A DNA stretch of 32,000 bases from positions 930,001 to 962,000 of the forward strand of contig NZ_CP017260.1 in assembly GCF_001735745.1 (NCBI RefSeq). Direction: 5' to 3'. Made by a program: the position numbers and the translations under genes. The notes under the pieces are model-generated. The model was not told where the DNA came from. It ran no database searches and worked only from the letters and a program-made list of their open reading frames with translations. This stretch comes from Formosa sp. Hel1_33_131 (lineage in GTDB: Bacteria; Bacteroidota; Bacteroidia; Flavobacteriales; Flavobacteriaceae). This document shows positions 4,246 to 28,714 of this stretch, piece by piece. Each line of letters opens with the position of its first letter. Position 1 is the stretch's first letter.

Positions 4246-4659
4246 TTGAATAACATACTAAATATTTTACTGATAGAAGATAATTCTATTGAGATCATGA
4301 AAATGAAAAGAACTGTTTCCTTTTTAAAATTAGAGCATACTATAAATGAAGCCGAAAATGTAGATGAAGCTCTTGAGTTTTTAAAAGATCGAAGTAGAAT
4401 TCCTGATATTATTTTATTAGATTTAAACATGCCAAAGATAAGTGGAATAGAATTTTTATCAATTTTAAAGAATGATGAAAACTTAAAATACATACCCACA
4501 GTCATTTTAACAACATCTAACAATCAAAAAGATATCATAGAATGTTATACAATTGGTATATCAGGCTATATTCTAAAACCTTTAAAATATGAGGATTACG
4601 TTAAAAAAATTGAGAGAACTTTGGCTTATTGGAGTATAAACGAATTAAGAAGAACTTAA
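4246..4659 (+). CDS. Stand-alone receiver-domain response regulator (CheY-like, no output domain)
   Basis: 137 aa. REC signature residues are intact: LLIEDN (acidic pair), IILLDLNMPKISG (phospho-acceptor Asp), VILTTS (Thr) and GYILKPL (Lys-Pro). The start is TTG at 4246, because in-frame TAA lies at 4240-4242 and no ATG precedes the REC core. Confidence 0.85.
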   Translation: MNNILNILLIEDNSIEIMKMKRTVSFLKLEHTINEAENVDEALEFLKDRSRIPDIILLDLNMPKISGIEFLSILKNDENLKYIPTVILTTSNNQKDIIECYTIGISGYILKPLKYEDYVKKIERTLAYWSINELRRT

Positions 4660-4795
4660 AAAATGGAACATCCTCAATACAAGTCAAAAAATCTTTAAGA
4701 AATAACTAAAAGGAGGTAACATACTTGCAGTGAGCCTGCCTACCGCAGTTAGGCGCAGTTGAAATGTGACTGTTAAAATTAATATATATAAACAT

Positions 4796-5335
4796 ATGAA
4801 AGGGATCGTTTTTACAGAGTTTTTAGATTTAGTAGAAATTAAATTTGGTTTAGGAATGGTTGATAAAATCATCAATCAATCAAAATTAGAATCTGAAGGA
4901 ATCTATACATCTATTGGCACCTATAGTTTTTCCGAAATGTTGCAATTATTACAACATTTGAGTGCACAAACAGACATTTCAATAGATGGATTGTTATTGA
5001 CTTACGGAGAACATTTTTTTAGTGTTATAAAAAAAACCTACCCAGGTCTTTTAGCGACTTATAAAGACCCCATAGAAATGCTGTCATCCATAGAAAACCA
5101 TATTCATATAGAAGTTCGAAAAATATATCCTGATGCAGAATTCCCTACGTTTATAGTTGAAGAGAAAACAGAAAACTCTCTTATTATGATTTATAAATCT
5201 GGTAGGGCAATGCATCATTTTGGGTTGGGTTTAATGAACAAAACATTCGAACATTTTAATTCTACAGCTTCTATTGTTTTAGAAAAAATAAAAGAAGATG
5301 GCACCGAGGTAAAATTTATCATTACCAAGAATTAA
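4796..5335 (+). CDS. hnoX: H-NOX (heme nitric oxide/oxygen-binding) sensor protein
   Basis: I moved the start from the track's GTG 4766 to ATG 4796, giving the canonical H-NOX N-terminus MKGIVFTEFLDLV. The candidate proximal heme His lies in ..IENHIHIEVRKIYP.. (compare DEVHLQLTKM in the Thermoanaerobacter H-NOX). The heme-propionate YxSxR motif is present as YKSGR. Length is about 179 aa. The stop overlaps the kinase start (TAATG). Confidence 0.85.
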   Translation: MKGIVFTEFLDLVEIKFGLGMVDKIINQSKLESEGIYTSIGTYSFSEMLQLLQHLSAQTDISIDGLLLTYGEHFFSVIKKTYPGLLATYKDPIEMLSSIENHIHIEVRKIYPDAEFPTFIVEEKTENSLIMIYKSGRAMHHFGLGLMNKTFEHFNSTASIVLEKIKEDGTEVKFIITKN

Positions 5336-7314
5336 TGAGTCTAGAAAAAGTTGAAATATTAGACCGTGCGCTCAAAAGAGAAAAAGCTGCCCGAAAAGCT
5401 GCGGAAAGGATATTAGAAGAAAAATCTAGAGATTTATACTTTATATCGGAAGAACTAAAAGACGCCAACCTTCAATTCGAAAATCTTTTAGTCGAAAAAT
5501 CGTCTCAACTTCAGGGGGTTTTTGAAAACATAAATGATGCCTATTTAGTAATTGATTTAGAAGGGGAGGTTCTAAAAATGAACGATGTAGCCACAGAATT
5601 TTTTGGATACAACATTGATAATGAAAAAGTAAATGCCACCTGCTTAATCTATCCTAAAGATAAAGATTACGCCTTTAATTCTTTTAAGAAATTAAAAAAA
5701 CAAGGGTTTTTCACAAACTATGTAGCAAGGATACTCACTAAACAAAAAGAAATTAAATGGGTACAGATTAATGCAACCATTATTTTTAATAAAGAAAAAA
5801 AAGCTATTGGAGCGCAGGGGATTGTAAGAAATATTACATCCAATAAAGAAGCAGAAGACTTACTGATACAATCAGAAAAAAGACTGTCATCTCTCATTTT
5901 AAACTTAGATAGTGGAATCCTTTTAGAGGATGAAAAAAGACAAATCGTATTGACAAATACTAAGTTTTGTGCACTTTTTAAAATCCCAGTATCTCCAGAA
6001 TTATTGATTGGAGAAGATTGTTCTAATGCATCAGAACAAAGCAAAGTATTGTTTAAAGATCCAGAACAGTTTGTAACCAGAATTAATGAGATACTTAAAA
6101 ACAAAAAACAAGTTTTAGCAGATGAAGTCATAATGACAGATGGTACAATTTTAGAACGCGATTTTATTCCTATTGTAATTGGTCCTAAATATCAGGGTCA
6201 TTTATGGGCTTATAGAAATGTCACGCTCAAAAGGCAGTACAGCCAAAGTCTAGAAAGTCAAAAAGAAAAATACAGTAGCATTATAGCCAATATGAATTTG
6301 GGATTGATGGAGGTCAATAACAATAATGAGATACTGACGGTAAACCAAAGTTTTGTAGAGATGTCTGGTTATTCCGAGAAAGAGTTGCTTGGCGAGATTG
6401 GTGAAAATGTTTTTATAAAAAATAAAGACTTCGAAATCCTCCCCGATCAAAGTAAGAATCGTTCAAAAGGCAAATCGTATTCTCGCGAAATTACAATACA
6501 AGATAAAAAAGGAGTTAACAAAAGTTGGCTTAGTAGTGAGGCTCCAAATTATAATCTGAATGGAGAGATCGTTGGTTTTATAGGGATACATCTAGATATT
6601 ACAGAATTTAAATTACTAGAAAAGCAGAACGCAAAAATATTGATAGAATTAGAAAAAAGGAATAACGAATTACATGAATATGCACATATCGTTTCTCATG
6701 ATCTTAAAGCGCCTTTAAGAAGTATTGATGCCTTAGTCTCTTGGATTAAATCAGATAATAAAGGTAAACTGGATGAAGTCACAGTTCAAAACTTTGAATT
6801 GATTGAGGAAACATTGGAAACAATGGAGAGTTTAATTTTTAATGTTTTAGAATACTCAAGTGCAGGGGTCGCTATAGAAACCATAAATGAGGTAGACTTA
6901 AATTTGATTCTTGAAGATCTAAGGAAAATTATACTTATCCCAGAAAACATCTCTGTAATTATTTTAAAAAAACTACCTATTGTTAAAGGAGATATCACTA
7001 AATTTAAACAAATTTTTCAAAATTTAGTGAGTAATGCTGTAAAATTTTCTGATAAAGAAAAAGGAATCATTGAAGTTGATTTTAATGAAGAAGGATCCTT
7101 TTATCTGTTTTCTGTAAAAGACAATGGAATTGGTATTGATGAAAAACACCATGATAAAATTTTTAAAATTTTTCAGTCATTAAATAAAAGTAAAGAGTCC
7201 ACAGGCATTGGTTTATCGATCGTGAAGAAAGTCGTTGAGTTATACGAAGGAGATATTTGGCTAGAAAGTGAAGAAGGCAAAGGAACTACTTTTTATTTTA
7301 CTATAAAAAAATAG
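5335..7314 (+). CDS. Cytoplasmic multi-PAS sensor histidine kinase (H-NOX-associated, no receiver domain)
   Basis: 659 aa with no TM segments. N-terminal coiled coil (LDRALKREKAARKAAERILEEK) followed by repeated PAS-like blocks. H-box HEYAHIVSHDLKAPLRSI, N-box FQNLVSNAVKFS, G1 VKDNGIGI, G2 GIGLSIVKKVVELYEGDIWLESEEGKGTTF. Translationally coupled to the H-NOX gene. Confidence 0.9.
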   Translation: MSLEKVEILDRALKREKAARKAAERILEEKSRDLYFISEELKDANLQFENLLVEKSSQLQGVFENINDAYLVIDLEGEVLKMNDVATEFFGYNIDNEKVNATCLIYPKDKDYAFNSFKKLKKQGFFTNYVARILTKQKEIKWVQINATIIFNKEKKAIGAQGIVRNITSNKEAEDLLIQSEKRLSSLILNLDSGILLEDEKRQIVLTNTKFCALFKIPVSPELLIGEDCSNASEQSKVLFKDPEQFVTRINEILKNKKQVLADEVIMTDGTILERDFIPIVIGPKYQGHLWAYRNVTLKRQYSQSLESQKEKYSSIIANMNLGLMEVNNNNEILTVNQSFVEMSGYSEKELLGEIGENVFIKNKDFEILPDQSKNRSKGKSYSREITIQDKKGVNKSWLSSEAPNYNLNGEIVGFIGIHLDITEFKLLEKQNAKILIELEKRNNELHEYAHIVSHDLKAPLRSIDALVSWIKSDNKGKLDEVTVQNFELIEETLETMESLIFNVLEYSSAGVAIETINEVDLNLILEDLRKIILIPENISVIILKKLPIVKGDITKFKQIFQNLVSNAVKFSDKEKGIIEVDFNEEGSFYLFSVKDNGIGIDEKHHDKIFKIFQSLNKSKESTGIGLSIVKKVVELYEGDIWLESEEGKGTTFYFTIKK

Positions 7315-7316
7315 CT

Positions 7317-7634
7317 ATGGAACAACCTAATTTAATCTATATTGACAAGCTGGCTAATGGTGATGAATCTGTTAAAAAAAGACTTATCGAGATCATTAAA
7401 ACTGAATTTCCTAAAGAGAAAAAAGAGTACCTCCTAAGTTTAGAAAATCTTGATTATAAAAAAATTGAAGAAAATGTTCATAAACTTAAACATAAAATTA
7501 GTATACTAGGACTTGAAAAAAGTTATGAAATAGCAAATAAATTTGAACATAAACTTAGAGATCAACGTTTAATTGATTCTAAAAGTTTTGAGGGAATTTT
7601 AATAAAAATTTCAGAATATTTAAAAACGATTTAA
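7317..7634 (+). CDS. Histidine phosphotransfer (Hpt) domain protein
   Basis: 105 aa and predicted all-helical. The Hpt-type motif ENVHKLKHKISILGL matches HxLKGxxxxxG-like consensus. Starts 2 nt after the kinase stop and ends 5 nt before the LytTR regulator gene. Confidence 0.7.
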   Translation: MEQPNLIYIDKLANGDESVKKRLIEIIKTEFPKEKKEYLLSLENLDYKKIEENVHKLKHKISILGLEKSYEIANKFEHKLRDQRLIDSKSFEGILIKISEYLKTI

Positions 7635-7639
7635 ATTCT

Positions 7640-8344
7640 ATGAATTGTATTATTATTGATGATGAAGAAACTGCAAGAGTGATCATTAGAACGCTTTGTG
7701 ATGAAATAGGAAATTTAACTATTATTGACGAATTCCCTAACGCCATTCAAGCTATTAAATTCCTTAACGAAAATGAGATAGATCTTATTTTTTTAGATAT
7801 TCACATGCCCGATTTTAGTGGATTAGATTTTATTAAAGCATTAAAAAATCCACCTAAAATAATTTTAACAACATCCGATACAAAATTTGCAATTGAAGCT
7901 TTTGAATATGATTGTATTATAGATTATTTATTAAAGCCAATCGAAAGACCAAGATTTGAAAAAGCGATTTTAAAAACCAAAAAACACCAAGCTGTAAATA
8001 CTTCAAATACGAGCATTGCAGATTTAAATCACAAAAACGATTTTTATGTGAATATCGATAGACGTCTGATAAAAATTGATTTGCCTGAAATTTATCTTAT
8101 AGAGGCAAAAGGAGACTATATTCATATAAAAACAGAAGACAAAAATTATGTGGTACATTCTACATTGAAAAAAATAGAAGAGAAACTGCCAGAATCATTA
8201 TTCCTAAAGGTGCATCGCTCCTACATAATCAACGTTAAAAAAATTATTGATATCGAAGATAATAGTGTTTTAATCAAAAAAGATGTCATCCCTGTGAGTC
8301 GTTCTAACCGACCTGAATTGATGAAACGATTGGATTTGTTATAA
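7640..8344 (+). CDS. LytR/AlgR-family response regulator (REC + LytTR DNA-binding domain)
   Basis: 234 aa. REC: IIIDDEE, LIFLDIHMPDFSG, IILTTS, DYLLKPI. The C-terminal LytTR pattern is ..IYLIEAKGDYIHIKTEDKNYVVHSTLKKIEEKLPESLFLKVHRSYIINVKKI. Confidence 0.9.
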   Translation: MNCIIIDDEETARVIIRTLCDEIGNLTIIDEFPNAIQAIKFLNENEIDLIFLDIHMPDFSGLDFIKALKNPPKIILTTSDTKFAIEAFEYDCIIDYLLKPIERPRFEKAILKTKKHQAVNTSNTSIADLNHKNDFYVNIDRRLIKIDLPEIYLIEAKGDYIHIKTEDKNYVVHSTLKKIEEKLPESLFLKVHRSYIINVKKIIDIEDNSVLIKKDVIPVSRSNRPELMKRLDLL

Positions 8345-8406
8345 TGATTTCATCTATATAAGCATAGCCGTTGACCTACAGTATTTGGGAGGCCTAGAGG
8401 TTTCGT

Positions 8407-10470
8407 CTATTTTTTGAATAAAGGTTTCTTGAAAAGGTACCATTTAAACCTCAAACCAATTTCCGTAAATTTAAAACCTGCAGCAGACGCAGAAGCTATG
8501 TTACTCTGCAGCCCGTAAATGTTTAGAGCACTTCTTTCCTTAAATTTATATCCTAATTTTCCTTGAATTCTATAGGTACTTTGTTTTTGATCATCTTCTA
8601 TAAATTGATACCCAGTTGCTGCCGTTAATTCATAAAACCATTCATTATTTTTTGCAATATTTTCATCTTTTATTAGATTCACAAAAACTTCAACGGCATT
8701 AAATTTACGAGGACTAAAATAAATGGTAGGCACTGTCTTTTTAAAAGATATATTCTGGTAATTAAATCCTGCTTTTAATGACGGCTTATCTAAAATGCTG
8801 TAGTACAATGATGTAAATAGTAGGTTTCGTGTATTGTCATCATTTTGAAACGTGTAATAATATTGGGTAAACCATCCCAACCTAAAGTTAGTGTTTAAGC
8901 TGTAATTCACTAAAAAATTATTCTGTACAATTTCTCTATCTAACAGCTCCGCATTAAAATTTTGCAATTCTCTTTTATATCCCAATTCTAAATTCTGAAG
9001 TTTAAACGGCTTAATCTTCAAAGAAAAATCGGCTAATAGTTGGCTGTAATTTATTGTTTCTGTGTTTGATGAAGTGATGCCTAAACACCCTTTAAACGTC
9101 AAATTATTTAAGATTTGATAGAATATTCCCGCTAAAAAATTATTAGATTTAGCACTCATATTCGTAACCGAATTAGCGGTTGTTCTGTAATTATAGCTTG
9201 CTAATAGCTTAAGTTTAGTTGTAAAGGAAAATTCAGAATTAGCAGTATAAGAATAGGCTTCATTATTGCCATTATCAAAAGAGTACGAGGCTTTAGTTTC
9301 TATAAAAGGCGTGAAATGTCTATCTAAACTTTTAATGAAATTAGTCGCATCTTTTTGATTCTTATAAAAATTTAAGGTGTTTTTTGCACTCTTATAAGCC
9401 GCATCATAATAGCCAGAAGCTTTAAGTGCATTCGCTTTACCAAGGTTTCCATCAAAAGAAGTACTGTCGTTTTTTAAGATTAAATTATAATCAGAAATAC
9501 TTTTTTTAAAATCGCTTTTGTAAATGTTCAATGTCGCTCTTAACGCTAAAATCCAATTTTCTAAGTTTTTATTTTTCAACACTAAGTCATCAATCTCCTT
9601 TTCTGCCAAGGAATACTTCTTGTTCCAAATCAATGCTTGAATGTATCTTTCTGTCGTTTGGTTTTTTAAAGAAACATCCGTTTGCTCTGTGAGACTGTCA
9701 AACGCCGTTTGACTCACAACTAAAGCGGCTTTGTCATTACTTTTTAAATGTTCGGCGAGTGCAATTCCGTTTAACGATATGAATCGATTTGCGGGCGTGT
9801 CTCCTATAATTTCATAAATCTCTTTTGCCCTATCCATTTGATTTGAGATTAAATACAGATTTGCAAGATTCAATAACGTTTCTTTATCATTTGTAAAGTC
9901 CTCAAAATTTTCTTTCAATAGGGTTTCTGCTTCCAAATAATTTTGAAGCTTCATTTTATCGTTTGCCAATCCTAAACGCATATATTTTTTGGAAATCAAA
10001 GCATTTTTGTTTTTGGGCAACACAATTAGTGCTTTATCAACATAAATAATAGCATTCTCAAACTCTTTAAGATTAGACAACGTATTTGCATACCCTAAAA
10101 GCGCAGGGAAACTTGTGTCGTTTTCTTTTAGTAAATTTTGATAATAGCCTTTTGCGGAAGTATAATCTTTATTCCAAAGCAGCGCTTCTGCATAATTTAA
10201 TTTGACTTCAAAATCTGTTGGAAAATCATCTAAAAGAGCAGTGAATAAACGTACAGCTTTTTTTGAATCGCCATTTAAGCCAATCGCTCTCCCATAACAA
10301 AGACGTGCTGTTTTGTTGCTCGGATAGGTCTGTAATACTGTTTCAAAAAAGGTTTCTGCTAGTTTGAACTTACCGGTTTCTAAATAAGCGAAGCCCGTTT
10401 TCATTTCTTGAGAAACGCCACAAAAACTAATAAAGAAAGCGATTAGTAATGTACTATATTTTAATTTCAT
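8407..10470 (-). CDS. Outer-membrane protein: N-terminal TPR array plus C-terminal beta-barrel (PelB/PgaA/BcsC-like architecture)
   Basis: 687 aa with signal peptide MKLKYSTLLIAFFISFCGVSQE. About 370 aa of TPR-like helical repeats (FAYLETGKFKLAETFFETVLQTYPSN.., AEALLWNKDYTSAKGYYQNLLKEND.., YANTLSNLKEFENAIIYVDKAL..). The last ~290 aa have short alternating-hydrophobic strands rich in Y/N/S/T (ASYSFDNGNNEAYSYTANSEFSF.., LGYKRELQNFNAEL.., FTEIGLRFKWYLF). Confidence 0.7.
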   Translation of the reverse strand: MKLKYSTLLIAFFISFCGVSQEMKTGFAYLETGKFKLAETFFETVLQTYPSNKTARLCYGRAIGLNGDSKKAVRLFTALLDDFPTDFEVKLNYAEALLWNKDYTSAKGYYQNLLKENDTSFPALLGYANTLSNLKEFENAIIYVDKALIVLPKNKNALISKKYMRLGLANDKMKLQNYLEAETLLKENFEDFTNDKETLLNLANLYLISNQMDRAKEIYEIIGDTPANRFISLNGIALAEHLKSNDKAALVVSQTAFDSLTEQTDVSLKNQTTERYIQALIWNKKYSLAEKEIDDLVLKNKNLENWILALRATLNIYKSDFKKSISDYNLILKNDSTSFDGNLGKANALKASGYYDAAYKSAKNTLNFYKNQKDATNFIKSLDRHFTPFIETKASYSFDNGNNEAYSYTANSEFSFTTKLKLLASYNYRTTANSVTNMSAKSNNFLAGIFYQILNNLTFKGCLGITSSNTETINYSQLLADFSLKIKPFKLQNLELGYKRELQNFNAELLDREIVQNNFLVNYSLNTNFRLGWFTQYYYTFQNDDNTRNLLFTSLYYSILDKPSLKAGFNYQNISFKKTVPTIYFSPRKFNAVEVFVNLIKDENIAKNNEWFYELTAATGYQFIEDDQKQSTYRIQGKLGYKFKERSALNIYGLQSNIASASAAGFKFTEIGLRFKWYLFKKPLFKK

Positions 10471-10593
10471 TTGTAATTTTTTATCTACAGTAAGTTAAGC
10501 ATTAGCTATTAATGATTGACCGAAACAAAACGACCTTTCAACGATAATAGAGCTCTATTGGAAGTTATTAAGAAGATATTTACGCCACTATTA

Positions 10594-10902: not shown

Positions 10903-10913
10903 AAATCTAAATT

Positions 10914-12188: not shown

Positions 12189-12208
12189 GCAATAGAGACA
12201 CATGAATC

Positions 12209-20703: not shown

Positions 20704-20705
20704 AA

Positions 20706-21137: not shown

Positions 21138-21144
21138 AGATAAT

Positions 21145-21176: not shown

Positions 21177-21195
21177 TACTCATTAATAATATAAA

Positions 21196-21630: not shown

Positions 21631-21675
21631 AAAAAAATAATCTTAATAAAGATAAAAAGGTCTTTATATCTGTAT

Positions 21676-23445: not shown

Positions 23446-23448
23446 CAA

Positions 23449-24450: not shown

Positions 24451-24460
24451 TATTATTATT

Positions 24461-24697
24461 ATGAAAATAGACTATTTAGAAAGCTTACAATGTAAAACTC
24501 CTGCAGAAGGCAGGCTGCTCGCCTTTACCCTTGCTAGAAAAACAATCGCTGCAATTCAAACGAATCCTGAAGTTCGTGAAAAGCTCAGGTCTCAATATTC
24601 AGAAGATACCGCCCAATTAATAGCCTCCTCTCAAGTGGTCGCTATTGAATTTCAAACCATTGCCATGGCAAACAACTACTGGAAAGATGAAAAATAA
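24461..24697 (+). CDS. Hypothetical small soluble protein
   Basis: 78-aa ORF in the operon's coding direction with an ATG start 10 nt after the ccoO-like stop. No recognisable motif. Its end overlaps the next gene's probable start. Confidence 0.35.
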   Translation: MKIDYLESLQCKTPAEGRLLAFTLARKTIAAIQTNPEVREKLRSQYSEDTAQLIASSQVVAIEFQTIAMANNYWKDEK

Positions 24698-24959
24698 ACT
24701 TATAATAATTATCGCACTAGTAATGAGCAATGCAGGCTTCGCATGTGAGGTGTGTAAAGCCAAACAGCCAAAAGGGTTTGAAAACCTTACTCATGGTGAA
24801 GGCCCTCAAGGAAATATAGACTATTTCATAATGTACAGTGCTGCTGTAATTGTCGGATACACGCTAATAATGAGTGTGAAATATTTGGTCAAACCAAAAG
24901 AAAACAATCGAGACCACATCAAAAACCTCATTTTAAATGATTCTAATTTTTCTGAATAA
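24687..24959 (+). CDS. Small membrane protein with an N-terminal signal/anchor, a CxxC motif and one TM helix
   Basis: I moved the start to ATG 24687 (MKNKLIIIIALVMSNAGFACEVCKAKQPKGF..). The TM helix is YFIMYSAAVIVGYTLIMSV. The stop overlaps the next start (TAATG). Confidence 0.45.
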   Translation: MKNKLIIIIALVMSNAGFACEVCKAKQPKGFENLTHGEGPQGNIDYFIMYSAAVIVGYTLIMSVKYLVKPKENNRDHIKNLILNDSNFSE

Positions 24960-25381
24960 TGATAAATAAAAGAAAAGTAAGTGTCCTTCTCGATAATGAG
25001 AAAATACCCTTTGGAGTGTTTGAACCTCCCGTAAAACTCGTGCTTGACACTACGAAAATACCAGATGGCAAGCACGAACTAAAAATCAACGCCATTTCGT
25101 CAAGTGGAATTCAAAGTGTAAGGATCATTCCTTTTGAAGTACGCAATGGTCCTGAAATAGCCGTCGTAGGACTGAAAGATCATGAAATCATAGAATCAAA
25201 TACAGCCATTCTAATTAATGCCTATGGCAGTGAGACTTCCGAATCCTTTATAATTAGAGGTTCAGAAACACCAAAAGCCATTCCTTCATGGGTTTGGGCG
25301 TGTATCATTGTATTTGTCAGTTTTGCTGTATTTTACTTTATAACACACTGGAATATGAACACTTATAAATCATTTTTTTAA
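24959..25381 (+). CDS. Hypothetical protein: beta-sandwich-like domain plus C-terminal TM anchor
   Basis: 140 aa. Sequence ..KLVLDTTKIPDGKHELKINAISSSGIQSVRIIPFEVRNGPEIAVV.. is followed by the TM helix WVWACIIVFVSFAVFYFI. Both ends are TAATG-coupled to neighbours. Confidence 0.5.
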   Translation: MINKRKVSVLLDNEKIPFGVFEPPVKLVLDTTKIPDGKHELKINAISSSGIQSVRIIPFEVRNGPEIAVVGLKDHEIIESNTAILINAYGSETSESFIIRGSETPKAIPSWVWACIIVFVSFAVFYFITHWNMNTYKSFF

Positions 25382-25746
25382 TGAACGATATTATTAACAG
25401 AAAAGACATAGAATTAATGGTAGACACCTTCTACGGAGAAGTACGAAAAGATAACCTTTTAGGCCCCATTTTCAATGGCGTCATTAAAGATAATTGGACG
25501 AAACACTTAGACACCATGTACCGTTTTTGGCAAACTGTTCTTTTACACGAAATCGCTTACAAGGGATCTCCATTTGTGCCGCACAGAAAACTACCCATAG
25601 AAGCACAGCATTTTGAGCGTTGGGTATTTCACTTCAACAATTCAATGGATAAAAATTTTGAAGGCAAGCTTGCTGAGGAAGCAAAATGGAGAGCTTCTAA
25701 AATGGCCGAAATGTTCATGTATAAATTGAGTCGTCACAGTTTTTAA
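25381..25746 (+). CDS. Group III truncated hemoglobin (Ctb-like)
   Basis: 121 aa. Close by-eye match to Campylobacter Ctb-type globins: FYGEVRKDNLLGPIFNGVI, HLDTMYRFWQTVLL, KGSPFVPHRKLPI (proximal His region) and FERWVFHF. Confidence 0.75.
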   Translation: MNDIINRKDIELMVDTFYGEVRKDNLLGPIFNGVIKDNWTKHLDTMYRFWQTVLLHEIAYKGSPFVPHRKLPIEAQHFERWVFHFNNSMDKNFEGKLAEEAKWRASKMAEMFMYKLSRHSF

Positions 25747-25791
25747 ACATCAACACATCAATAGAAATTAAATCTTCTAGAAACATTAGAA

Positions 25792-26232
25792 ATGACACTA
25801 AGCAATAAACTAACGATCTCAATCCCGCTTCTATGGCTAGGTTTTGTACTTTCCATCTCGTTTATGGAAGCATGGCTAAAATTTCAAGCAGAAGGGGTGA
25901 CGCTAGCAATTGGTTTGAGCGTTGGTAAACTCATCTTTTTTGCATTAAATAAAGTTGAATTATTATTTTTACTAGTTATCGGCATTTTAACATTCCGAAA
26001 ACAGTCACTACAAAGAAAACACCTTGTAAACATACTTGTATGGCTGATGGTGATTTTACTCATTCAAACATTTTATTTGCTACCAGCCCTTAATCAACGT
26101 GCTGAAATGATTATAAGTGGGAACCCTCCAACCACTTCCTTTTTTCATATTTATTATATTTTTTTAGAAGTATTAAAAGTAATTGCACTCCTCATTTTCT
26201 CACACTTAACCTTAAAAAAACACAATGGATAA
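25792..26232 (+). CDS. Integral membrane protein, ~4 TM, unknown function
   Basis: 146 aa with four hydrophobic segments (ISIPLLWLGFVLSISF; GLSVGKLIFFAL..LLFLLVIGILTF; ILVWLMVILLIQTFYLL; IYYIFLEVLKVIALLIF). Overlaps the TDO start by 8 nt. Confidence 0.55.
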   Translation: MTLSNKLTISIPLLWLGFVLSISFMEAWLKFQAEGVTLAIGLSVGKLIFFALNKVELLFLLVIGILTFRKQSLQRKHLVNILVWLMVILLIQTFYLLPALNQRAEMIISGNPPTTSFFHIYYIFLEVLKVIALLIFSHLTLKKHNG

Positions 26233-27160
26233 CACAAAAATTTATCAATCACTAGAAGACAAATACACAAATCTAGGAGAGAATTCTTCTACGTATTTAA
26301 AAGGGATTCTGCACACCAAGGAAACAGACTACTGGAGTTATATCCAGCTGGATACGCTTCTATCGTTGCAAAATCCTAAAACACATTTTGAAGATGAAGA
26401 AGTCTTCATCATCTATCATCAACTAACGGAACTTATGTTAAAACTCGTACTCAATGAGATAAAAAAGTTGACAGAAAACAATGAGGTTGATGAAGAACTC
26501 TTTATTTCAAAATTACAGAGAATCAACCGTTACACACAAATGCTCATCAATTCGTTTGCTATAATGCGACATGGTATGGACTATGATGATTATAACACTT
26601 TTAGAAGTGCTCTCGCTCCTGCCAGTGGTTTTCAAAGTGCTCAATTTAGATACATTGAACTGCGTAGTACCTCTCTAGAAAATTTAATTCCACAGAAAAA
26701 TAAGATTACCAAAGAAAGTCGTATTGAAGACTTAATGGAACTGCAATACTGGAAAGCAGCAGGCACCAACCCTAGGACTGGAAATAAAACGCTCACCCTT
26801 CGTCAGTTCGAAGAAAAGTATGGCGCTAAACTTTTACAACTCGCTAAGGATTTCAGAAATAAAACACTCAAGGATCGGTTTGAAAGTATCAAATCCCCAT
26901 CAGAAGAACTCATTAATCTAATGCGAACTTTTGATTATTTATATAATATAAAATGGCCTATCGTTCATTTGGAAACCGCTTCTTATTATCTAGATTCCAA
27001 AGGAGAAAGGAAAGAAGCCACAGGGGGTTCAGAATGGAAAAAATACTTACACCCTAAAAATCAACGTCGCATCTTCTTTCCATCGGTCTGGTCAACAGAT
27101 GAATTAAAAAATTGGGGAGACCCATGTTTCTTTCGTGATGAAGATTTTAAAGGGCACTAA
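26225..27160 (+). CDS. kynA: Tryptophan 2,3-dioxygenase family heme protein
   Basis: 311 aa. TDO motifs: YWSYIQLDTLLSLQNP, EEVFIIYHQLTELMLKL (distal His), YNTFRSALAPASGFQSAQFRYIEL (Tyr/Arg that bind the Trp carboxylate, plus SGFQSxQFR), WPIVHLETASYYL (proximal His) and ATGGSEWKKYL. Confidence 0.8.
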   Translation: MDNTKIYQSLEDKYTNLGENSSTYLKGILHTKETDYWSYIQLDTLLSLQNPKTHFEDEEVFIIYHQLTELMLKLVLNEIKKLTENNEVDEELFISKLQRINRYTQMLINSFAIMRHGMDYDDYNTFRSALAPASGFQSAQFRYIELRSTSLENLIPQKNKITKESRIEDLMELQYWKAAGTNPRTGNKTLTLRQFEEKYGAKLLQLAKDFRNKTLKDRFESIKSPSEELINLMRTFDYLYNIKWPIVHLETASYYLDSKGERKEATGGSEWKKYLHPKNQRRIFFPSVWSTDELKNWGDPCFFRDEDFKGH

Positions 27161-27161
27161 A

Positions 27162-27464
27162 ATGATCGTAAACGTTATAGATTTAGATAATAAAATACAT
27201 GCTTTAAAATATAAACGATTGGAATATCCTAGTTTAATGGAACTGATAACCAACTCCTATTATTCAGAAATTGGTGAATGTAAAGGAAAAGGATTGTGCG
27301 GAACTTGTATTGTTGAAGTGATAAAAGGCTTTGAAAAACAGCCTATAAGCACACAAGAAAAGCACACCCTTAAGGTTCATAATGCAACCACAAAAAACAG
27401 ATTGGCCTGTCAAATTATCCTAGATCATAAAACGAATGGCGCCGTCTTTAAAGAAATCATATAA
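27162..27464 (+). CDS. [2Fe-2S] ferredoxin-like protein
   Basis: I moved the start to ATG 27162 (MIVNVIDLDNKIH..), 2 nt after the TDO stop. The Cys pattern is ECKGKGLCGTCIVEV (C-x5-C-x2-C) plus a distal LACQI Cys, as in plant/vertebrate-type 2Fe-2S ferredoxins. Confidence 0.7.
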   Translation: MIVNVIDLDNKIHALKYKRLEYPSLMELITNSYYSEIGECKGKGLCGTCIVEVIKGFEKQPISTQEKHTLKVHNATTKNRLACQIILDHKTNGAVFKEII

Positions 27465-27483
27465 CTAAGTAAAAAGGGGAGAA

Positions 27484-27795
27484 ATGGAAAACTTAGAAAA
27501 AGAAAATCAAATCATCGATCAACTAAAAATGGTATATGACCCCGAAATCCCAGTCAACGTCTATGACTTAGGTCTTATTTATGATTGCAAAATTTTAGCA
27601 GAAGATCGCGTTGAAATTTTGATGACACTCACCTCACCTTCTTGTGCCATGGCAGGAATGATTGTGGACGAAGTAAGAGAGCGTGTCTCAGAACTTGATT
27701 TTATAAAAAAAACGACTGTGGAACTCACTTGGGACCCCCCTTGGGATAAAATACTAATGAGTGACGAAGCATTACTCTTACTCGGATTTATGTAA
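27484..27795 (+). CDS. DUF59 / SufT-like Fe-S cluster assembly protein
   Basis: 103 aa. Family-typical sequence: LKMVYDPEIPVNVYDLGLIYD..ILMTLTSPSCAMAGMIVDEV..VELTWDPPWDKILMSDEALLLLG. Confidence 0.8.
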   Translation: MENLEKENQIIDQLKMVYDPEIPVNVYDLGLIYDCKILAEDRVEILMTLTSPSCAMAGMIVDEVRERVSELDFIKKTTVELTWDPPWDKILMSDEALLLLGFM

Positions 27796-27828
27796 AACTA
27801 AAAAACAATAACTTAAAAAACCCAAATT

Positions 27829-28572
27829 ATGAAGATCACATCAAAAAGTATCGTCGGCGATATCGTTGCCGACAATTACAAAACAGCAGAAATTTTTAAA
27901 AAACACAACATTGATTTCTGTTGTGGCGGACAACAAACTATAGAGGAGGCTTGTGACAAAGAACACCTTTCTAGTGCCGATTCTGAAACACTCCTACAAT
28001 CCGTGAATGCGTTTTTTGAACAAAACGAAAGGGAGCAACACGCCTCAGACTATCGGAATTGGCCTCTCGATGAGCTTGCAGATCACGTGGAGACAAAACA
28101 CCACGGATACGTTGAAGCAAAAATTCCCGTAATAAAAGAATACTTAGACAAAATTGAATCTGCTCACGGAAAAAAACATCCAGAGCTCTCAAAAATCAAT
28201 ACAATATTCAAAGATGCTACTGGACAATTGGTCATGCATATGAAAAAAGAAGAACTCATATTATTTCCATACATTAGAAAAATGGCCAAGGCAAAACGGA
28301 AAAATATCCAATTAGCAACTCCTACTTTTGAAACAATAAAAAACCCCATTAGTAAAATGGATGAAGAACATGATTTTGAAGGGGAAGCCTTCAGAGAAAT
28401 TGCAGCCTTAGCAAATAATTACAACGTACCAGCAGATGGCTGTAATACATACCGTGTTGCTTTTGGCATGCTTAAAGAATTTGATGAAGACCTTCACTTA
28501 CACATCCATAAAGAGAACAATGTTTTGTTTCAAAGAGCGATTGCACTTGAAGAAGAATTACTACAAGCTTAA
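27829..28572 (+). CDS. ric: Iron-sulfur cluster repair di-iron protein (RIC; YtfE/ScdA family)
   Basis: 247 aa. The ScdA_N motif is FKKHNIDFCCGG. Hemerythrin-like His/Glu ligand blocks: LADHVETKHHGYV, HMKKEELILFPYI, MDEEHDFEGEAFREI and LHLHIHKENNVLFQRA. Collinear with E. coli YtfE by eye. Confidence 0.9.
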   Translation: MKITSKSIVGDIVADNYKTAEIFKKHNIDFCCGGQQTIEEACDKEHLSSADSETLLQSVNAFFEQNEREQHASDYRNWPLDELADHVETKHHGYVEAKIPVIKEYLDKIESAHGKKHPELSKINTIFKDATGQLVMHMKKEELILFPYIRKMAKAKRKNIQLATPTFETIKNPISKMDEEHDFEGEAFREIAALANNYNVPADGCNTYRVAFGMLKEFDEDLHLHIHKENNVLFQRAIALEEELLQA

Positions 28573-28592
28573 ACTTAAAGTACTTATTAAAC

Positions 28593-28630
28593 AAAAAAGC
28601 TTCTCAAAATGAGAAGCTTTTTTGTTGTTT
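28593..28630. terminator. Bidirectional rho-independent terminator
   Basis: Perfect 13-bp stem AAAAAAGCTTCTC (28593-28605) / GAGAAGCTTTTTT (28611-28623) with loop AAAAT. T-runs follow on both strands. It lies 21 nt after the ric stop and directly abuts the 3' end of the minus-strand tRNA. Confidence 0.85.
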
Positions 28631-28632
28631 AG

Positions 28633-28714
28633 TGCGGGCGGGGAGACTCGAACTCCCACACCTTGCGGCACTAGATCCTAAGTCTAGCGTGTCTACCAAT
28701 TCCACCACGCCCGC
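28633..28714 (-). tRNA. tRNA-Leu(UAG): tRNA-Leu, anticodon UAG (type II, long variable arm)
   Basis: Reverse complement: GCGGGCGTGGTGGAATTGGTAGACACGCTAGACTTAGGATCTAGTGCCGCAAGGTGTGGGAGTTCGAGTCTCCCCGCCCGCA. 7-bp acceptor stem GCGGGCG/CGCCCGC. Anticodon stem CTAGA/TCTAG with loop CTTAGGA (anticodon TAG). Variable arm. T-arm GGGAG-TTCGAGT-CTCCC. No encoded CCA. Confidence 0.9.

Follow-up and report, generated by a model that had tools for sequence, protein, structure and literature searches.

Two probably independent units, a putative H-NOX phosphorelay-glycan regulon and an Rrf2-headed cassette, adjoin in Formosa sp. Hel1_33_131

Introduction

Within the window, i.e. the whole 32,000-nt stretch of Formosa sp. 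Hel1_33_131 DNA analysed here, an H-NOX phosphorelay, a surface-glycan locus and an Rrf2-headed operon follow each other between positions 4246 and 28714. A preliminary description had read all three as one ~24-kb module linking NO perception to surface glycan and NO detoxification, which raises the question of whether these neighbours belong together or form separate units. We conclude that the block probably consists of two independent units with a clean boundary at 21137/21138, of which unit 1 (~4132-21137) would be an NO-responsive glycan regulon and unit 2 (21138-28622), the Rrf2-headed operon, is separate from it.

Results

All genes named before were recovered by ORF, Pfam and NCBIfam checks (Table 1), either exactly in place or shifted by a few bases, while those for HTHP and a 78-aa protein had been missed. 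The plus-strand orientation of all genes between 19495 and 28572, the strong hairpin with its T-run behind them, and the absence of GGDEF, EAL, HD-GYP and PilZ domains from every called protein of the window (Pfam) were confirmed as well.

Table 1 Predicted features of the two units and their right flank
Feature	Position	Strand	Evidence and remarks
Tandem operator-like repeat AGTTCATCTATAC, 8 nt, CATTCACCTAAAG, 21-bp period	4132-4165	+	8.6 and 15.1 bits
Standalone REC, 137 aa	4246-4659	+	Pfam Response_reg 1.6e-21; D59, K111 present
H-NOX heme NO sensor, 179 aa	4796-5335	+	HNOB 3.2e-38; His104, YxSxR motif 133-137
PAS-PAS-PAS-HisKA-HATPase histidine kinase, cytoplasmic	5335-7314	+	Pfam; H-box HIVSHDLKAPL
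Hpt phosphotransfer protein, 105 aa	7317-7634	+	Pfam Hpt 21.8 bits (below cut-off 24.6); HKLKH motif
REC-LytTR response regulator	7640-8344	+	LytTR 1.1e-21, REC 1e-17
Weak operator-like site CGTTGACCTACAG	8369-8381	+	9.4 bits
TPR protein, secreted, 687 aa	8407-10470	-	Pfam TPR families; weak NCBIfam PrsT, PgaA matches in TPR part
STAS-like small protein, 128 aa as listed	10516-10902	+	Pfam STAS 7.7e-4, below cut-off
MOP/Polysacc_synt-like membrane protein, ~12 TM helices (Wzx- or PelG-like)	10914-12188	+	TM profile
GT4 cytoplasmic glycosyltransferase, GT-B fold	12239-13426	+	Glycos_transf_1 1.7e-18
GH5-like glycoside hydrolase (clan GH-A), membrane-anchored	13435-14949	-	Cellulase/GH5 2.7e-14
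Ig-like (Big_1 / Invasin_D3-like) secreted protein	14943-16142	-	Invasin_D3 29.3 bits, below cut-off
unk1029, 1029-aa integral membrane protein, ~10 TM helices, beta-rich C-terminal half	16142-19231	-	
Strongest operator-like site of the window CATTCGCCTAAAC	19314-19326	+	16.6 bits
Bacteroidetes-type -7 box TACTTTTG	19375-19382	+	Downstream of the CATTCGCCTAAAC site
REC-GT2 fusion: complete receiver and GT-A glycosyltransferase	19495-20703	+	REC 9.9e-25, Glycos_transf_2 1.2e-20
Small GT2-N-terminal-like protein, 141-143 aa	20706-21137	+	Glycos_transf_2 1.3e-6; last gene of unit 1
Rrf2 operator-like palindrome AGATAATTTTGTCCGAA	21138-21154	+	Start of unit 2
-7 box of Rrf2 operon TATTTTTG	21169-21176	+	
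Rrf2-family Fe-S transcription regulator	21196-21630	+	Rrf2 3.2e-22
Divergent cbb3-type heme-copper O2-reductase paralogue, two genes	21676-24450	+	COX1 1.1e-83; FixO and Cytochrome_CBB3
HTHP heme protein	24461-24697	+	109 bits
78-aa protein	24723-24959	+	
140-aa protein	24959-25381	+	
Truncated globin	25381-25746	+	
146-aa membrane protein	25792-26232	+	
TDO-like heme protein	26225-27160	+	
2Fe-2S ferredoxin	27162-27464	+	
SufT/DUF59	27484-27795	+	
RIC (YtfE/ScdA-type di-iron Fe-S repair protein)	27829-28572	+	TIGR03652 225 bits (above cut-off 204.7); last gene of unit 2
Terminator hairpin with T-run	28593-28622	+	
tRNA-Leu(tag)	28632-28714	-	

Unit 1 opens with the genes for a standalone REC, H-NOX, a PAS histidine kinase, Hpt and REC-LytTR, in this order, and continues into the glycan locus. 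In all H-NOX loci examined, the operon begins with the gene for the standalone REC. While the listed ORF for H-NOX starts at GTG 4766, the real start is ATG 4796, which gives the 179 aa found in all homologues; the protein shares ~88% identity with the H-NOX crystallised from Kordia algicida (PDB 6BDD/6BDE). The histidine kinase, whose start overlaps the H-NOX stop, is not a hybrid according to its Pfam domain content, and TM prediction gave no convincing segment in it. Every phospho-acceptor residue of the relay and of REC-GT2 is invariant across orthologues, including His55 of Hpt (39 orthologues) and, together with K99, D53 of REC-LytTR (43 orthologues). We propose that REC-LytTR is the terminal transcription factor of the relay.

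A conserved glycan core was found in 77 Flavobacteriaceae loci, and 46 of the 51 informative loci (~90%), from many genera of marine flavobacterial relatives, have an orthologue of the LytTR regulator on the far side of the TPR gene. REC and H-NOX were present in 7/7 loci, i.e. all those with sequence upstream of the PAS kinase, in which H-NOX presence can be judged, and H-NOX-anchored loci of Polaribacter, Tenacibaculum and Dokdonia continue into the same glycan genes. In five loci (Zunongwangia and two MAGs) the relay is absent within 4 kb of the glycan locus.

The promoters of the glycan locus contain direct repeats with a 21-bp period, an operator arrangement typical of LytTR regulators. 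REC-LytTR would bind such repeats with the consensus CATTC(G/A)TCTA(C/A)A(C/G) at 21 bp spacing. The operator matrix was trained on glycan-promoter regions of other loci only, so that the scan upstream of the relay is an independent test. Here, the tandem repeat 81-114 nt upstream of the REC gene is a candidate site for LytTR autoregulation, and L011, L013, L019, L031, L056, L078, L082, L083 and L094 have a site at the equivalent position. Sites upstream of REC in the window and these 9 other loci compare with 0.018 expected per region, and the pairs are exactly 21 bp apart; the same scan found no site upstream of REC in the Polaribacter PL03-like loci L079-L081. The strongest site of the window lies with its -7 box within the divergent unk1029/REC-GT2 promoter region. 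Three sites of at least 14 bits occur in the 32-kb window, two of them within relay/glycan promoter regions, compared to a mean of 0.38 in shuffled sequence. The best operator score in the TPR/unk424 promoter region of the window is a mere 4.8 bits, and the weak site at 8369-8381 may be a relic, because the corresponding position in relatives is taken by a T9SS-cargo gene with a strong site. In agreement with the tie between phosphorelay and glycan locus suggested before, conserved neighbourhood and common operator coincide, and from sequence the relay appears to regulate the neighbouring glycan genes.

The glycan block spans 8407-21137, including REC-GT2. Its TPR protein, kept in 69/77 loci at 45-72% identity, combines N-terminal TPR repeats with a C-terminal part of ~440 aa of unknown fold and has a putative role in the outer membrane. 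Orthologues of the STAS-like protein have 92-96 aa, among them a 92-aa protein encoded at the equivalent position in Dokdonia L094, and the copy in L175 shows 83% aa identity. The MOP-like protein is 51-79% identical across loci, with a weak match of the L079 orthologue to PF01943 Polysacc_synt. The closest PDB relatives of the GH5-like hydrolase are beta-mannanases, and its catalytic Glu335 (NEP motif) and Glu419 are invariant in 74 orthologues. The N-terminus of the Ig-like protein resembles a signal peptide. The membrane protein unk1029 is 74-93% identical across genera, and sequence searches of Pfam and PDB gave no match. Its AF2 model is poor (pLDDT 56.7), and the longest fold alignments of this poor model are those with STT3/PglB (E ~3e-3 to 1e-2, TM-score ~0.2), which makes unk1029 a candidate GT-C-type periplasmic glycosyltransferase or polymerase.

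The receiver domain reported for one of the glycan enzymes is indeed present in REC-GT2, of which D7, D8, D51, S80, K102 and DAD230-232 do not vary among 66 orthologues. The enzyme part is most like polyprenyl-phosphate sugar synthases, with ArnC and GtrB as the closest proteins in PDB. A REC-less GT2 is found in Nonlabens, Leeuwenhoekiella, Aquimarina and Neptunitalea, so that the system can do without the REC-GT2 branch. At the position of the small GT2-like protein, L002, L010, L016, L022, L067, L175 and L176 have ORFs of 115-164 aa.

Beyond-chance adjacency differs between the relay/glycan and the glycan/Rrf2 junctions. The cassette adjoins the glycan locus in 0/77 glycan-anchored and 0/85 oxidase-anchored loci, and the two nearest sister lineages, L175 and L176, are without exactly a 7.45-kb segment (~21138 to 28585). 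In both, the small GT2-like gene leads directly to the hairpin, followed by tRNA-Leu and the M20 segment, a right flank in common with the window. The cassette lies between glycan locus and tRNA-Leu in the present lineage only, where the physical adjacency of the blocks recurs in independent metagenome contigs (L084-L087). Since the cassette lacks adjacency in both sets, has its own promoter and operator and is absent from L175 and L176, the Rrf2 block occurs independently; of the supposed ~24-kb module, the conserved pair of relay and glycan locus stands and the Rrf2 operon is probably not part of it. The 58-nt gap 21138-21195 houses the conserved operator and -7 box of the Rrf2 operon, and a search of this gap for a terminator found none. 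Because of this missing terminator between 21137 and 21196, transcription from the REC-GT2 promoter may run on into the Rrf2 operon in the present lineage.

Palindrome and -7 box of the Rrf2 operon are conserved in L088, L090, L091 and L092 and reach as far as Cytophagia. The palindrome occurs a single time in the window, and the matrix scan of the operon returned no LytTR-type site. Cys93, Cys100, Cys106 and His109 of the Rrf2 protein are invariant, and its assignment as an NsrR equivalog was rejected (25 bits with the NsrR model vs a cut-off of 182). The operon had been described as one for hemoproteins and Fe-S repair, and RIC is present, but 21676-24450 encodes subunit I of a heme-copper oxidase, whose 589 aa include ~135 additional residues at the N-terminus, and a 333-aa fusion of CcoO with cytochrome c. 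Subunit I scores 250 bits with the ccoN model vs a cut-off of 583. Its heme and CuB histidines and the cross-link Tyr all align with 3MK7, and a cNOR-type Glu is absent from the alignment; with the O2-reductase active site kept, the oxidase was rejected as a canonical NO reductase. The earlier label "NsrR / NO-detoxification" had been inferred and is not supported by the NsrR score and the O2-reductase site. We propose that unit 2 is a self-contained, autoregulated cassette of a cbb3-type oxidase paralogue, heme proteins and Fe-S repair functions.

Discussion

As predicted from the encoded proteins, unit 1 would be an NO-responsive surface-glycan and adhesion regulon. Binding of NO by H-NOX would modulate the adjacent soluble PAS kinase; to our knowledge, NO-bound H-NOX inhibits autophosphorylation in every characterised H-NOX/kinase pair. 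The phosphoryl group would take a His-Asp-His-Asp route from the kinase via the standalone REC, as intermediate Asp acceptor similar to Spo0F, to Hpt and two terminal receivers. As repeats precede its own operon and occur in the divergent glycan promoters, REC-LytTR, the first of these receivers, is proposed to activate both its own operon and the glycan locus. GT4, the MOP-like flippase, GT-C-like unk1029, the GH5-like hydrolase and the Ig-like and TPR proteins would produce a surface polysaccharide that is probably assembled in part in the periplasm. Phosphotransfer instead of c-di-GMP, as suggested previously, fits the content of the window, but is not new downstream of H-NOX: in the closest known system, HnoX-HahK-SypF-SypG/syp of Vibrio fischeri, HnoX-HahK acts on the syp polysaccharide locus through the SypF Hpt domain (PMC8738867, PMC12369376).

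We consider it highly improbable that H-NOX signalling coordinates polysaccharide remodelling with NO detoxification through a single, integrated NO module made up of sensor, glycan locus and Rrf2 operon. The blocks are contiguous, all genes of 19495-28572 point the same way without a terminator ahead of 28593, several contigs of the lineage keep the arrangement, and RIC, truncated globin and an Fe-S Rrf2 regulator are protein classes often tied to nitrosative stress. Such a juxtaposition is improbable by chance, the a priori chance of a possibly NO-related cassette landing exactly beside an H-NOX block being low (roughly 0.1-1%, a post hoc judgement). Against this stand the missing adjacency in either anchored set, the clean boundary at which sister lineages lack the cassette, the conserved operator and promoter of the Rrf2 operon itself, without a LytTR-type site and with no second Rrf2 operator in the window, as well as the poor NsrR score and the O2-reductase site. 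Quite possible, if somewhat short of an even chance, is a function of unit 2 as a general heme/Fe-S or low-oxygen/oxidative-stress cassette around an alternative high-affinity terminal oxidase that is not NO-specific. Although RIC, truncated globins and Fe-S Rrf2 regulators are often NO-responsive, the core of Rrf2, oxidase, CcoO/cyt c and two small proteins is found in 66-74 of 85 loci, RIC and globin in a mere 34-36. Among NCBIfam models, the Rrf2 protein comes closest to the SUF regulator and IscR, not to NsrR, and HTHP has been described as a tyrosine-ligated heme protein. The oxidase keeps the CuB histidines and cross-link Tyr that mark O2 reductases (criterion of PMC11214002), although in vitro, oxidases of the C family are able to reduce NO as well (PMC11214002).

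Within unit 1, the relay could act by LytTR-dependent transcription only, with REC-GT2 regulated without phosphorylation or with its receiver fed by another kinase, as it may be. We regard this as unlikely, but as a serious option: a REC-less GT2 occurs alongside H-NOX and relay, e.g. in Nonlabens L056, and Zunongwangia L006-L008 keep REC-GT2 at 68% identity without an adjacent relay. However, the REC quintet is invariant in all 66 orthologues, Pfam showed no further kinase in the locus, and the locus to whose core REC-GT2 belongs is flanked by a relay that contains an Hpt hub; such hubs typically serve several receivers. It is rather unlikely that the locus glycosylates periplasmic proteins or lipids, for example by O-mannosylation of T9SS cargo or in a cell-envelope glycolipid, in place of a secreted exopolysaccharide, GT2 providing the polyprenyl-P-sugar and the GT-C-like protein transferring it. 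The similarity of GT2 to ArnC and GtrB would suit this, as would the TM region of unk1029, which aligns best over its length with the oligosaccharyltransferases STT3 and PglB, the absence of Wza/Wzc, Wzy or an initiating phosphoglycosyltransferase from the locus (Pfam, NCBIfam) and the T9SS-cargo gene with the same operator inside the block of relatives. The structural evidence is weak both ways, and the locus contains GT4, a MOP-like flippase, a dedicated glycoside hydrolase and a TPR protein, a combination typical of the polymer-export systems Pel, PNAG and cellulose.

We favour a surface polysaccharide as the probable product of unit 1 and a relay that branches at Hpt, with the REC of REC-GT2 as the likely second terminal receiver. 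If REC-GT2 is a target of the relay, the supply of polyprenyl-phosphate-sugar donor would be under direct post-translational control.

Results

Gene content of the window

The gene map, built from six-frame open reading frames together with Pfam and NCBIfam searches, bore out the gene content and arrangement of the preliminary description, and the domain search found no GGDEF, EAL, HD-GYP or PilZ domain in the window, as had also been stated there. Two short genes of the Rrf2-headed operon, encoding HTHP and a family-less protein, fell below the 80-aa ORF filter and were revealed by the gene calls of the independent metagenome contigs L084-L087, which repeat the gene order of the window. An Rfam scan of the whole window returned the tRNA as sole match. 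The spacer between the REC and H-NOX genes, which is longer than in relatives, folds no better than shuffled sequence (z = 0.06) and had no Rfam match.

The left flank of the relay operon differs genus by genus: it holds a TonB-dependent receptor in the window (1047-3908 and 249-1034 compared), ribosomal protein genes and DUF6495 in Polaribacter, and other genes elsewhere (L078, L079, L082, L093 and L094 compared). Since this flank varies in every genus, the REC gene with its operator is the true left boundary of the relay and glycan unit.

Features of the window and of related loci (L-numbers, from genome and metagenome scans)
Feature	Sequence	Position	Strand	Remarks
Operator-like site	window	4153, partner exactly 21 bp upstream at 4132		at least 14 bits; 93 nt before REC gene
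Standalone receiver (REC)	window	4246-4659		Pfam
REC/H-NOX spacer	window	4660-4795		137 nt with GC-rich stretch; 2-50 nt in relatives
H-NOX, 179 aa	window	ORF listed from 4766, real start ATG 4796		length as in all homologues
Soluble PAS-PAS-PAS-HisKA-HATPase kinase	window	5335-7314		Pfam
Hpt, 105 aa	window	7317-7634		Pfam 21.8 bits, under 24.6 cut-off
REC-LytTR regulator	window	7640-8344		Pfam
Interval without T9SS gene	window	8345-8406		weak operator-like remnant at 8369, 9.4 bits
Glycan block	window	8407-21137		TPR protein, STAS-like ORF, ~12-TM membrane protein, GT4, GH5-like hydrolase, Ig-like protein, unk1029, REC-GT2, small GT2-like protein
STAS-like ORF	window	10516-10902		
unk1029, 1029 aa	window	16142-19231	-	multi-TM, family-less
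Operator-like site	window	19314		at least 14 bits; REC-GT2/unk1029 promoter region
REC-GT2	window	19495-20703	+	receiver-glycosyltransferase fusion
Operator-like site AATTCATCTACAC	window	19705-19717		14.2 bits; inside REC-GT2 coding sequence
Rrf2-headed operon	window	21196-28572		
Oxidase residues 1-135	window	21676-22080		N-terminal stretch
HTHP (hexameric tyrosine-coordinated heme protein), 78 aa	window	24461-24697		109 bits; Rrf2 operon
Family-less 78-aa protein	window	24723-24959		Rrf2 operon
Strong hairpin	window	28593-28622		
tRNA-Leu(tag)	window	28632-28714	-	Rfam
tRNA-Leu(tag)	L175	2379-2461		
tRNA-Leu(tag)	L176	1562-1644		
tRNA-Leu(tag)	L088	16938-17020		
FIST protein and short kinase	L078	12522-14704		
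T9SS-secreted protein	L082/L083	15938-18643		
T9SS-secreted protein	L078	15856-18978		
Mannose-6-phosphate isomerase-like gene	L002	1171-2394	-	
Mannose-6-phosphate isomerase-like gene	L056	3733-4701	-	
GT2 without receiver	L056	4731-5546		

The relay adjoins the glycan locus across genera

A genome scan anchored on the GH5-like gene with 10-kb flanks yielded 77 loci from many Flavobacteriaceae genera, onto which every protein of the window was mapped. The glycan core (TPR, MOP-like, GT4, GH5, Ig-like, unk1029 and GT2 with or without receiver) is kept almost everywhere at 45-79% identity. Relay adjacency was counted in the 69 loci with a TPR gene: just past it, 46 have a LytTR-regulator orthologue, usually with Hpt and kinase, 5 have none within at least 4 kb and 18 end too early to judge, which leaves 46 relay-adjacent cases among 51 informative loci. 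H-NOX and the standalone REC were present in all seven loci with sequence available upstream of the PAS kinase. The reverse test, anchored on H-NOX homologues that are 83-88% identical across genera, agreed with this result. In Polaribacter IC073, a Polaribacter PL03-like population and two Tenacibaculum genomes, the order is REC, H-NOX, PAS kinase, FIST, short second kinase, Hpt, LytTR regulator and a T9SS-cargo gene, followed by the TPR gene; in Dokdonia (L094) a streamlined relay, as in the window, leads directly into STAS, GT4, GH, Ig-like protein and unk1029. The operon is also present in Kordia SMS9 (REC-H-NOX-HK-FIST-HK2-Hpt-LytTR), where the flank is too short to show what adjoins it. 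The kinase gene is co-oriented with hnoX and abuts it, the H-NOX stop overlapping the kinase start at 5335, and the pairing was present in all H-NOX loci examined.

In most relatives (L078-L083, L093), the genes for the PAS kinase and Hpt are separated by a second sensor pair, composed of a FIST-domain protein and a short 347-aa HisKA-HATPase kinase, so that two kinases converge on one Hpt. The pair is absent from the window, from Dokdonia L094 and from the sister loci L175 and L176, having been lost or never acquired. Relatives also have, between the LytTR and TPR genes, a gene for a T9SS-secreted protein (Por_Secre_tail with DUF6923 or Ice_binding), which is preceded by the shared operator-like site described below.

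Shared operator-like repeats

In the divergent promoter region of unk1029 and REC-GT2, a conserved motif, CATTC(G/A)TCTA(C/A)A(C/G), precedes a -7 box of the Bacteroidetes type; two or three copies with a spacing of exactly 21 bp occur there in many loci. Words related to this motif are also the most shared 8-mers of the divergent region between the TPR and MOP-like genes. Imperfect direct repeats with a 21-bp period are a hallmark of operators of the LytTR family, such as those of AgrA and ComE. The -7 boxes were read directly from the sequence; a scan for sigma-70 promoters and terminators (18500-29500) returned counts equal to the shuffled expectation and is uninformative in a Bacteroidetes genome.

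A weight matrix was trained solely on instances in the unk1029/REC-GT2 and TPR/MOP-like regions of other loci. It found three sites of at least 14 bits in the 32-kb window, compared to 0.38 expected from shuffles. That within the REC-GT2 coding sequence may be due to chance or be an internal regulatory site. Because the region upstream of REC had been left out of matrix training, it served as an independent test. The window, L011, L013, L019, L031, L056, L078, L082, L083 and Dokdonia L094 have sites there that score 11 bits or more, with 0.018 expected per region, and in six lineages these have partners 21 bp away. In Tenacibaculum an operator-like site also precedes the T9SS-cargo gene, and in Dokdonia one precedes STAS-GT4. 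The Polaribacter PL03-like loci had no site upstream of REC, and the best site in the TPR/MOP-like region of the window reached 4.8 bits. What characterizes a LytTR regulon is found here, namely a REC-LytTR regulator and imperfect direct repeats ~21 bp apart, which lie upstream of its own operon and of candidate targets. Most simply, the relay operon (by autoregulation), the glycan locus and, where present, the secreted adhesin-like protein would together form one LytTR regulon.

Relay components

The HNOB domain (PF07700) was detected with 131.6 bits (cut-off 25.5), and H-NOX has the proximal His104 and the heme-propionate motif Y133-x-S-x-R137. It is ~88% identical over 179 aa to its orthologue from Kordia algicida, which shares the heme ligand and the YxSxR motif and has a crystal structure (PDB 6BDD/6BDE). 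The chains of these entries are named '2,4-dihydroxyhept-2-ene-1,7-dioic acid aldolase', a trap for automated naming. Five positions past the Arg of YxSxR, at what we take to be the site of the distal-pocket Tyr (in the numbering of Tt H-NOX), the protein has Phe142 and not Tyr. A distal pocket that lacks this Tyr goes with selective binding of NO.

All phospho-acceptors are present: the H-box of the kinase, D59 of REC, H55 of Hpt, D53 of the LytTR regulator and D51 of REC-GT2. Invariant among orthologues are His55 of Hpt (n=39), Asp53 and Lys99 of the LytTR regulator (n=43) and the receiver quintet D7, D8, D51, S80 and K102 of REC-GT2 (n=66). Judged by these residues, the relay components look functional. 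Since the kinase is not a hybrid, the standalone REC is the natural intermediate of a His-Asp-His-Asp relay; Spo0F is a single-domain receiver with this role in a phosphorelay.

Glycan machinery

The best PDB matches of the GT2 half of REC-GT2 are ArnC (7.5e-6) and GtrB (1.7e-4), both polyprenyl-phosphate sugar synthases, and its motif DAD230-232 is invariant (n=66 orthologues); no C-terminal TM helices were predicted for REC-GT2. The REC fusion is common and not universal, since the GT2 of Nonlabens, Leeuwenhoekiella, Aquimarina and Neptunitalea (271 aa, starting MKTGIIIPCYNEEKRL; L004, L012, L056, L063-L065) has no receiver domain. The 143-aa GT2-like ORF that follows REC-GT2 is not a truncation scar of a rearrangement, since seven other loci have an ORF of 115-164 aa at this place.

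In the GH5-like protein, Glu335 of the NEP motif and Glu419 are invariant (n=74 orthologues), and the nearest PDB relatives are beta-mannanases. In L002 and L056, from two genera, a gene resembling class-I mannose-6-phosphate isomerase, judged by N-terminal sequence alone, lies immediately past the small GT2-like gene or GT2. Speculatively, the mannanase-like GH5 and the isomerase-like neighbour hint at a mannose-containing polymer.

unk1029 has ~10 TM helices and more than 2,800 homologues, is 74-93% identical across genera and, after TM1, keeps E29, D33, E50 and YPPL65-68 invariant; it matched no Pfam family and no PDB sequence. GT-C glycosyltransferases have a multi-TM fold whose first periplasmic loop carries acidic residues. 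In a fold comparison of its model (pLDDT 56.7), the longest alignments were to the GT-C enzymes STT3/PglB and were weak (E 3e-3 to 1e-2, TM-score ~0.2), from which we put forward the hypothesis that unk1029 could be a GT-C glycosyltransferase. The single-sequence model of the TPR protein (pLDDT 40.7) was discarded. Conservation suggests that the weakly scoring STAS-like ORF is a genuine gene: an orthologue with 83% aa identity occurs in L175 (96 aa), and Dokdonia L094 has a 92-aa STAS gene at the same position. No partner-switching kinase or phosphatase is encoded near it.

The Rrf2 operon is an independent cassette

The preliminary description had joined NO sensor, glycan genes and NO-detoxification operon into one module of ~24 kb. 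The link between relay and glycan locus stands, given the adjacency in 46 of 51 loci and the shared operator-like repeats, while the inclusion of the Rrf2 operon does not: Rrf2, oxidase and CcoO were found within the 10-kb flanks of none of the 77 glycan-anchored loci. Conversely, 85 loci anchored on the oxidase (65-90% identity) were collected, 80 of them from a metagenome scan, and the 38 with at least 5 kb of upstream sequence contained no glycan-locus, H-NOX, kinase or Hpt genes. The core of the operon among the 85 loci consists of Rrf2 (68), oxidase, CcoO/cytochrome c (74), the family-less 78-aa protein (66) and a 140-aa protein (66); globin (36) and RIC (34) are variable, as are a membrane protein, ferredoxin, a TDO-like protein and SufT.

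The junction can be read from close relatives. In the nearest sisters, L175 (unk1029 93% and M20 dipeptidase 98% aa identity, right flank 95.7% nt) and L176 (90%, 97% and 90.6%), kinase, Hpt, LytTR regulator and TPR through REC-GT2 and the small GT2-like gene are followed directly by the hairpin, tRNA-Leu(tag) and M20. In the more distant L088 and L095, the Rrf2 operon is joined to the same segment of hairpin, tRNA and M20, with unrelated genes on the left. One discrete segment of ~7.45 kb (~21138-28585) thus sets the window apart from its closest relatives. It begins with the Rrf2 operator, ends shortly after the RIC stop codon and separates the last glycan gene from the tRNA gene, on whose 3' side it lies, a classic hot spot of insertion. 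Neither an integrase nor flanking direct repeats were seen at its boundaries. In every lineage the right boundary of the cassette is tRNA-Leu(tag) with the conserved upstream hairpin. By this comparison, the cassette would have been either gained in the lineage of the window or lost in the sisters; whichever the direction, one discrete segment differs, and the three blocks are therefore not a conserved module.

A functional connection particular to this lineage was considered as well. In the window the operon follows the last glycan gene, so that lineage-specific coupling by read-through can be conceived; we regard it as unlikely. The Rrf2 gene has an operator of its own, the palindrome (T)CGGATAAttTTGTCCGA, with a -7 box downstream of it, and both are kept from Flavobacteriia to Catalinimonas (Cytophagia). 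This palindrome is single-copy in the window, on which ground a link of the blocks via the Rrf2 operator was rejected, and the matrix scan of the window placed no LytTR-type site near the Rrf2 operon. Membership of the Rrf2 operon in a conserved module with relay and glycan locus is thus refuted. For the pairing of H-NOX relay and glycan locus, synteny and the shared operator provide strong support.

Identity of the Rrf2 regulator and the oxidase

The Rrf2 protein (PF02082, 79.5 bits) has the Rrf2 fold and the three Cys cluster ligands of NsrR-type repressors, with Cys93, Cys100, Cys106 and His109 invariant. A designation as NsrR was not upheld, as it scored 25.3 bits against the NsrR model NF008240 (cut-off 182); SUF-regulator and IscR models score it higher, yet below their own cut-offs. 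We know of no published NsrR box that its palindrome resembles. The label 'NO detoxification' is still plausible for the operon because of RIC, which has ScdA_N and hemerythrin domains (TIGR03652, 225.4 bits, cut-off 204.7), and the globin.

Subunit I of the oxidase aligns over ~430 residues with P. stutzeri CcoN (3MK7, 5.8e-67), matches to cbb3 CcoN reaching 1e-68, compared to a weak alignment with NorB (3.7e-10 and 3.3e-4), and is followed by a FixO/CcoO-cytochrome c fusion. The residues matching His60, His207, Tyr251, His257, His258, His345 and His347, in what we take to be the numbering of the P. stutzeri enzyme, are all conserved. After the first CuB histidine no Glu of the cNOR type was found; QGVG follows. 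NO reductases are recognized by loss of the active-site cross-link Tyr, and in cNOR and qNOR a Glu coordinates FeB; the relatives of nNOR are in the B-family and not the C-family, and C-family oxidases can reduce NO in vitro (PMC11214002). With Tyr and all histidines kept and no FeB Glu in the 3MK7 alignment, a novel NO reductase was rejected, and the protein is predicted to be a divergent paralogue of cbb3-type O2 reductases. Its score against the ccoN model TIGR00780 is 250 bits (cut-off 583). At its N-terminus it is longer by ~135 aa, which include one strong TM helix, and it has a Gln aligned to Glu323 of P. stutzeri CcoN, presumably the residue that hydrogen-bonds the heme b3 histidine. 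These two features may define a C-family subfamily of its own, unnamed and widespread in Bacteroidota.

Discussion

In Vibrio fischeri, where biofilm formation is inhibited by NO, HnoX-HahK acts on the syp polysaccharide locus by way of the Hpt domain of SypF and of SypG (PMC8738867, PMC12369376). The principle of a path from H-NOX through a phosphorelay to a polysaccharide without c-di-GMP was therefore already known. The system in the window, here known from its sequence, likewise combines H-NOX and an adjacent kinase with Hpt, response regulator and a polysaccharide locus, and small STAS proteins occur in both, SypA in V. fischeri and the STAS-like ORF in the window. However, hnoX-hahK is unlinked to syp, whereas the relay stands beside the glycan locus in the window; Hpt is a domain of the hybrid kinase SypF in V. 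fischeri, compared to four separate relay proteins here; and one biosynthetic enzyme, REC-GT2, has its own receiver. The terminal regulator is of the LytTR type and thereby of another class than SypG, a sigma-54-dependent regulator. Pfam and NCBIfam searches of the window returned no Syp-family or sigma-54-activator match and no SypE-like partner for the STAS protein. By its gene content, the system probably works like Syp and is not a member of it. New compared to V. fischeri are the phylum, the target-adjacent four-protein relay, the LytTR regulator with a recognisable candidate operator, the FIST pair in relatives, the receiver-bearing enzyme and the glycan machinery.

H-NOX signalling has so far been worked out almost wholly in Proteobacteria, where it leads to c-di-GMP enzymes or quorum-sensing circuits. 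H-NOX is co-transcribed with a kinase in the HnoK networks of Shewanella oneidensis and the HqsK-LuxU-LuxO pathway of V. harveyi and V. parahaemolyticus, as here, and signalling is branched or routed by Hpt to several receivers (PMC6769237, PMC6759604). The outputs of these pathways are c-di-GMP enzymes or quorum-sensing regulators, none of them LytTR, a glycosyltransferase or in Bacteroidota. For the Kordia algicida H-NOX, the accessible literature treats the sensor domain alone, by structure and simulation, and we found in it no description of a pathway or target locus. Nor did the literature on H-NOX in Flavobacteriia and Bacteroidota and on flavobacterial REC-glycosyltransferases yield a description of this system. 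A REC-glycosyltransferase fusion has been noted merely as an architecture, in archaeal MTH_548 (PMC5847659), and phosphorylation-controlled STAS-glycosyltransferases are just emerging in cyanobacteria.

Like AgrA, ComE and PlnC, the regulator has REC-LytTR architecture and ~21-bp imperfect direct repeats, here a candidate operator, upstream of its own operon and of target genes. AlgR, which acts on alginate, is a precedent for control of an exopolysaccharide by a LytTR regulator. Unlike in all of these, the repeat sequence is another one and the predicted input is a multi-step Hpt relay instead of a cognate membrane kinase. The KinA-Spo0F-Spo0B-Spo0A phosphorelay of B. subtilis consists of four separate proteins with His-Asp-His-Asp transfer, and all four component types are present in the window with conserved residues. 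However, the phosphotransferase is a four-helix-bundle Hpt in the window and Spo0B in B. subtilis, and in relatives of the window a second sensor pair feeds the relay.

Among polysaccharide systems, Pel has counterparts of several proteins of the window: PelF for the GT4, PelG for the MOP-like membrane protein, a dedicated hydrolase, and PelB, which joins TPR to a porin, for the TPR protein, in which a porin domain is at most putative. However, the window has neither a c-di-GMP receptor of the PelD type nor PelC, and its hydrolase is GH5-like instead of GH114. The full Pel set (PelA GH114/deacetylase, PelB, PelC, PelD, PelE, PelF, PelG) is thus not present in the window. As in Gtr and Arn systems, a GT2 resembling polyprenyl-P-sugar synthases lies beside a large multi-TM protein, the candidate GT-C unk1029, although GtrB and ArnC have C-terminal TM helices which the GT2 of the window lacks. 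From its predicted components, the glycan machinery fits neither Pel, Wzx/Wzy nor classical synthase systems. The Rrf2 operon, in which an Fe-S Rrf2 regulator stands at the head of genes that include those for RIC and a truncated globin, resembles NsrR-type nitrosative-stress regulons, though this regulator is not NsrR. Its oxidase resembles cbb3 CcoN in metal ligands and Tyr and has a CcoO-like subunit II, and differs by the low ccoN score and the N-terminal stretch.

Beyond transcriptional control, the H-NOX relay might end on REC-GT2 as a further acceptor. In that case, NO could switch synthesis of a polyprenyl-phosphate-sugar donor in a matter of seconds, with no need of transcription, and the donor would feed a so far unrecognised polymerase of the GT-C type, unk1029. 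We advance this as a tentative proposal that we consider rather doubtful. If it were true, REC-GT2 would be a phosphorylation-gated counterpart of the c-di-GMP-gated polysaccharide synthases, and marine Flavobacteriaceae, in which c-di-GMP signalling is generally scarce, would couple surface-glycan production to algal NO. For the pathway as a whole, directly testable predictions concern two candidate operator sites, the phospho-acceptors (four residues) and a single switch in an enzyme.

The Rrf2 operon provides a negative result of its own, since an independent cassette gained or lost beside a tRNA gene can mimic a functional 'super-module'. The analysis also draws attention to an uncharacterised glycan machinery, including the highly conserved unk1029, which belongs to no family, and it assigns a probable physiological output to an H-NOX whose Kordia orthologue has been crystallised. 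Sensor, kinase, intermediate receiver, Hpt, LytTR regulator, candidate operator, target locus and a receiver-bearing enzyme form a complete and legible pathway in one place. Many genera of marine Flavobacteriaceae share it, among them Formosa and Polaribacter (bloom-associated), Tenacibaculum (fish-pathogenic) and Kordia (algicidal). Since NO is an algal stress signal, the system could bear on the switch between free-living and surface- or particle-attached life in phytoplankton blooms.
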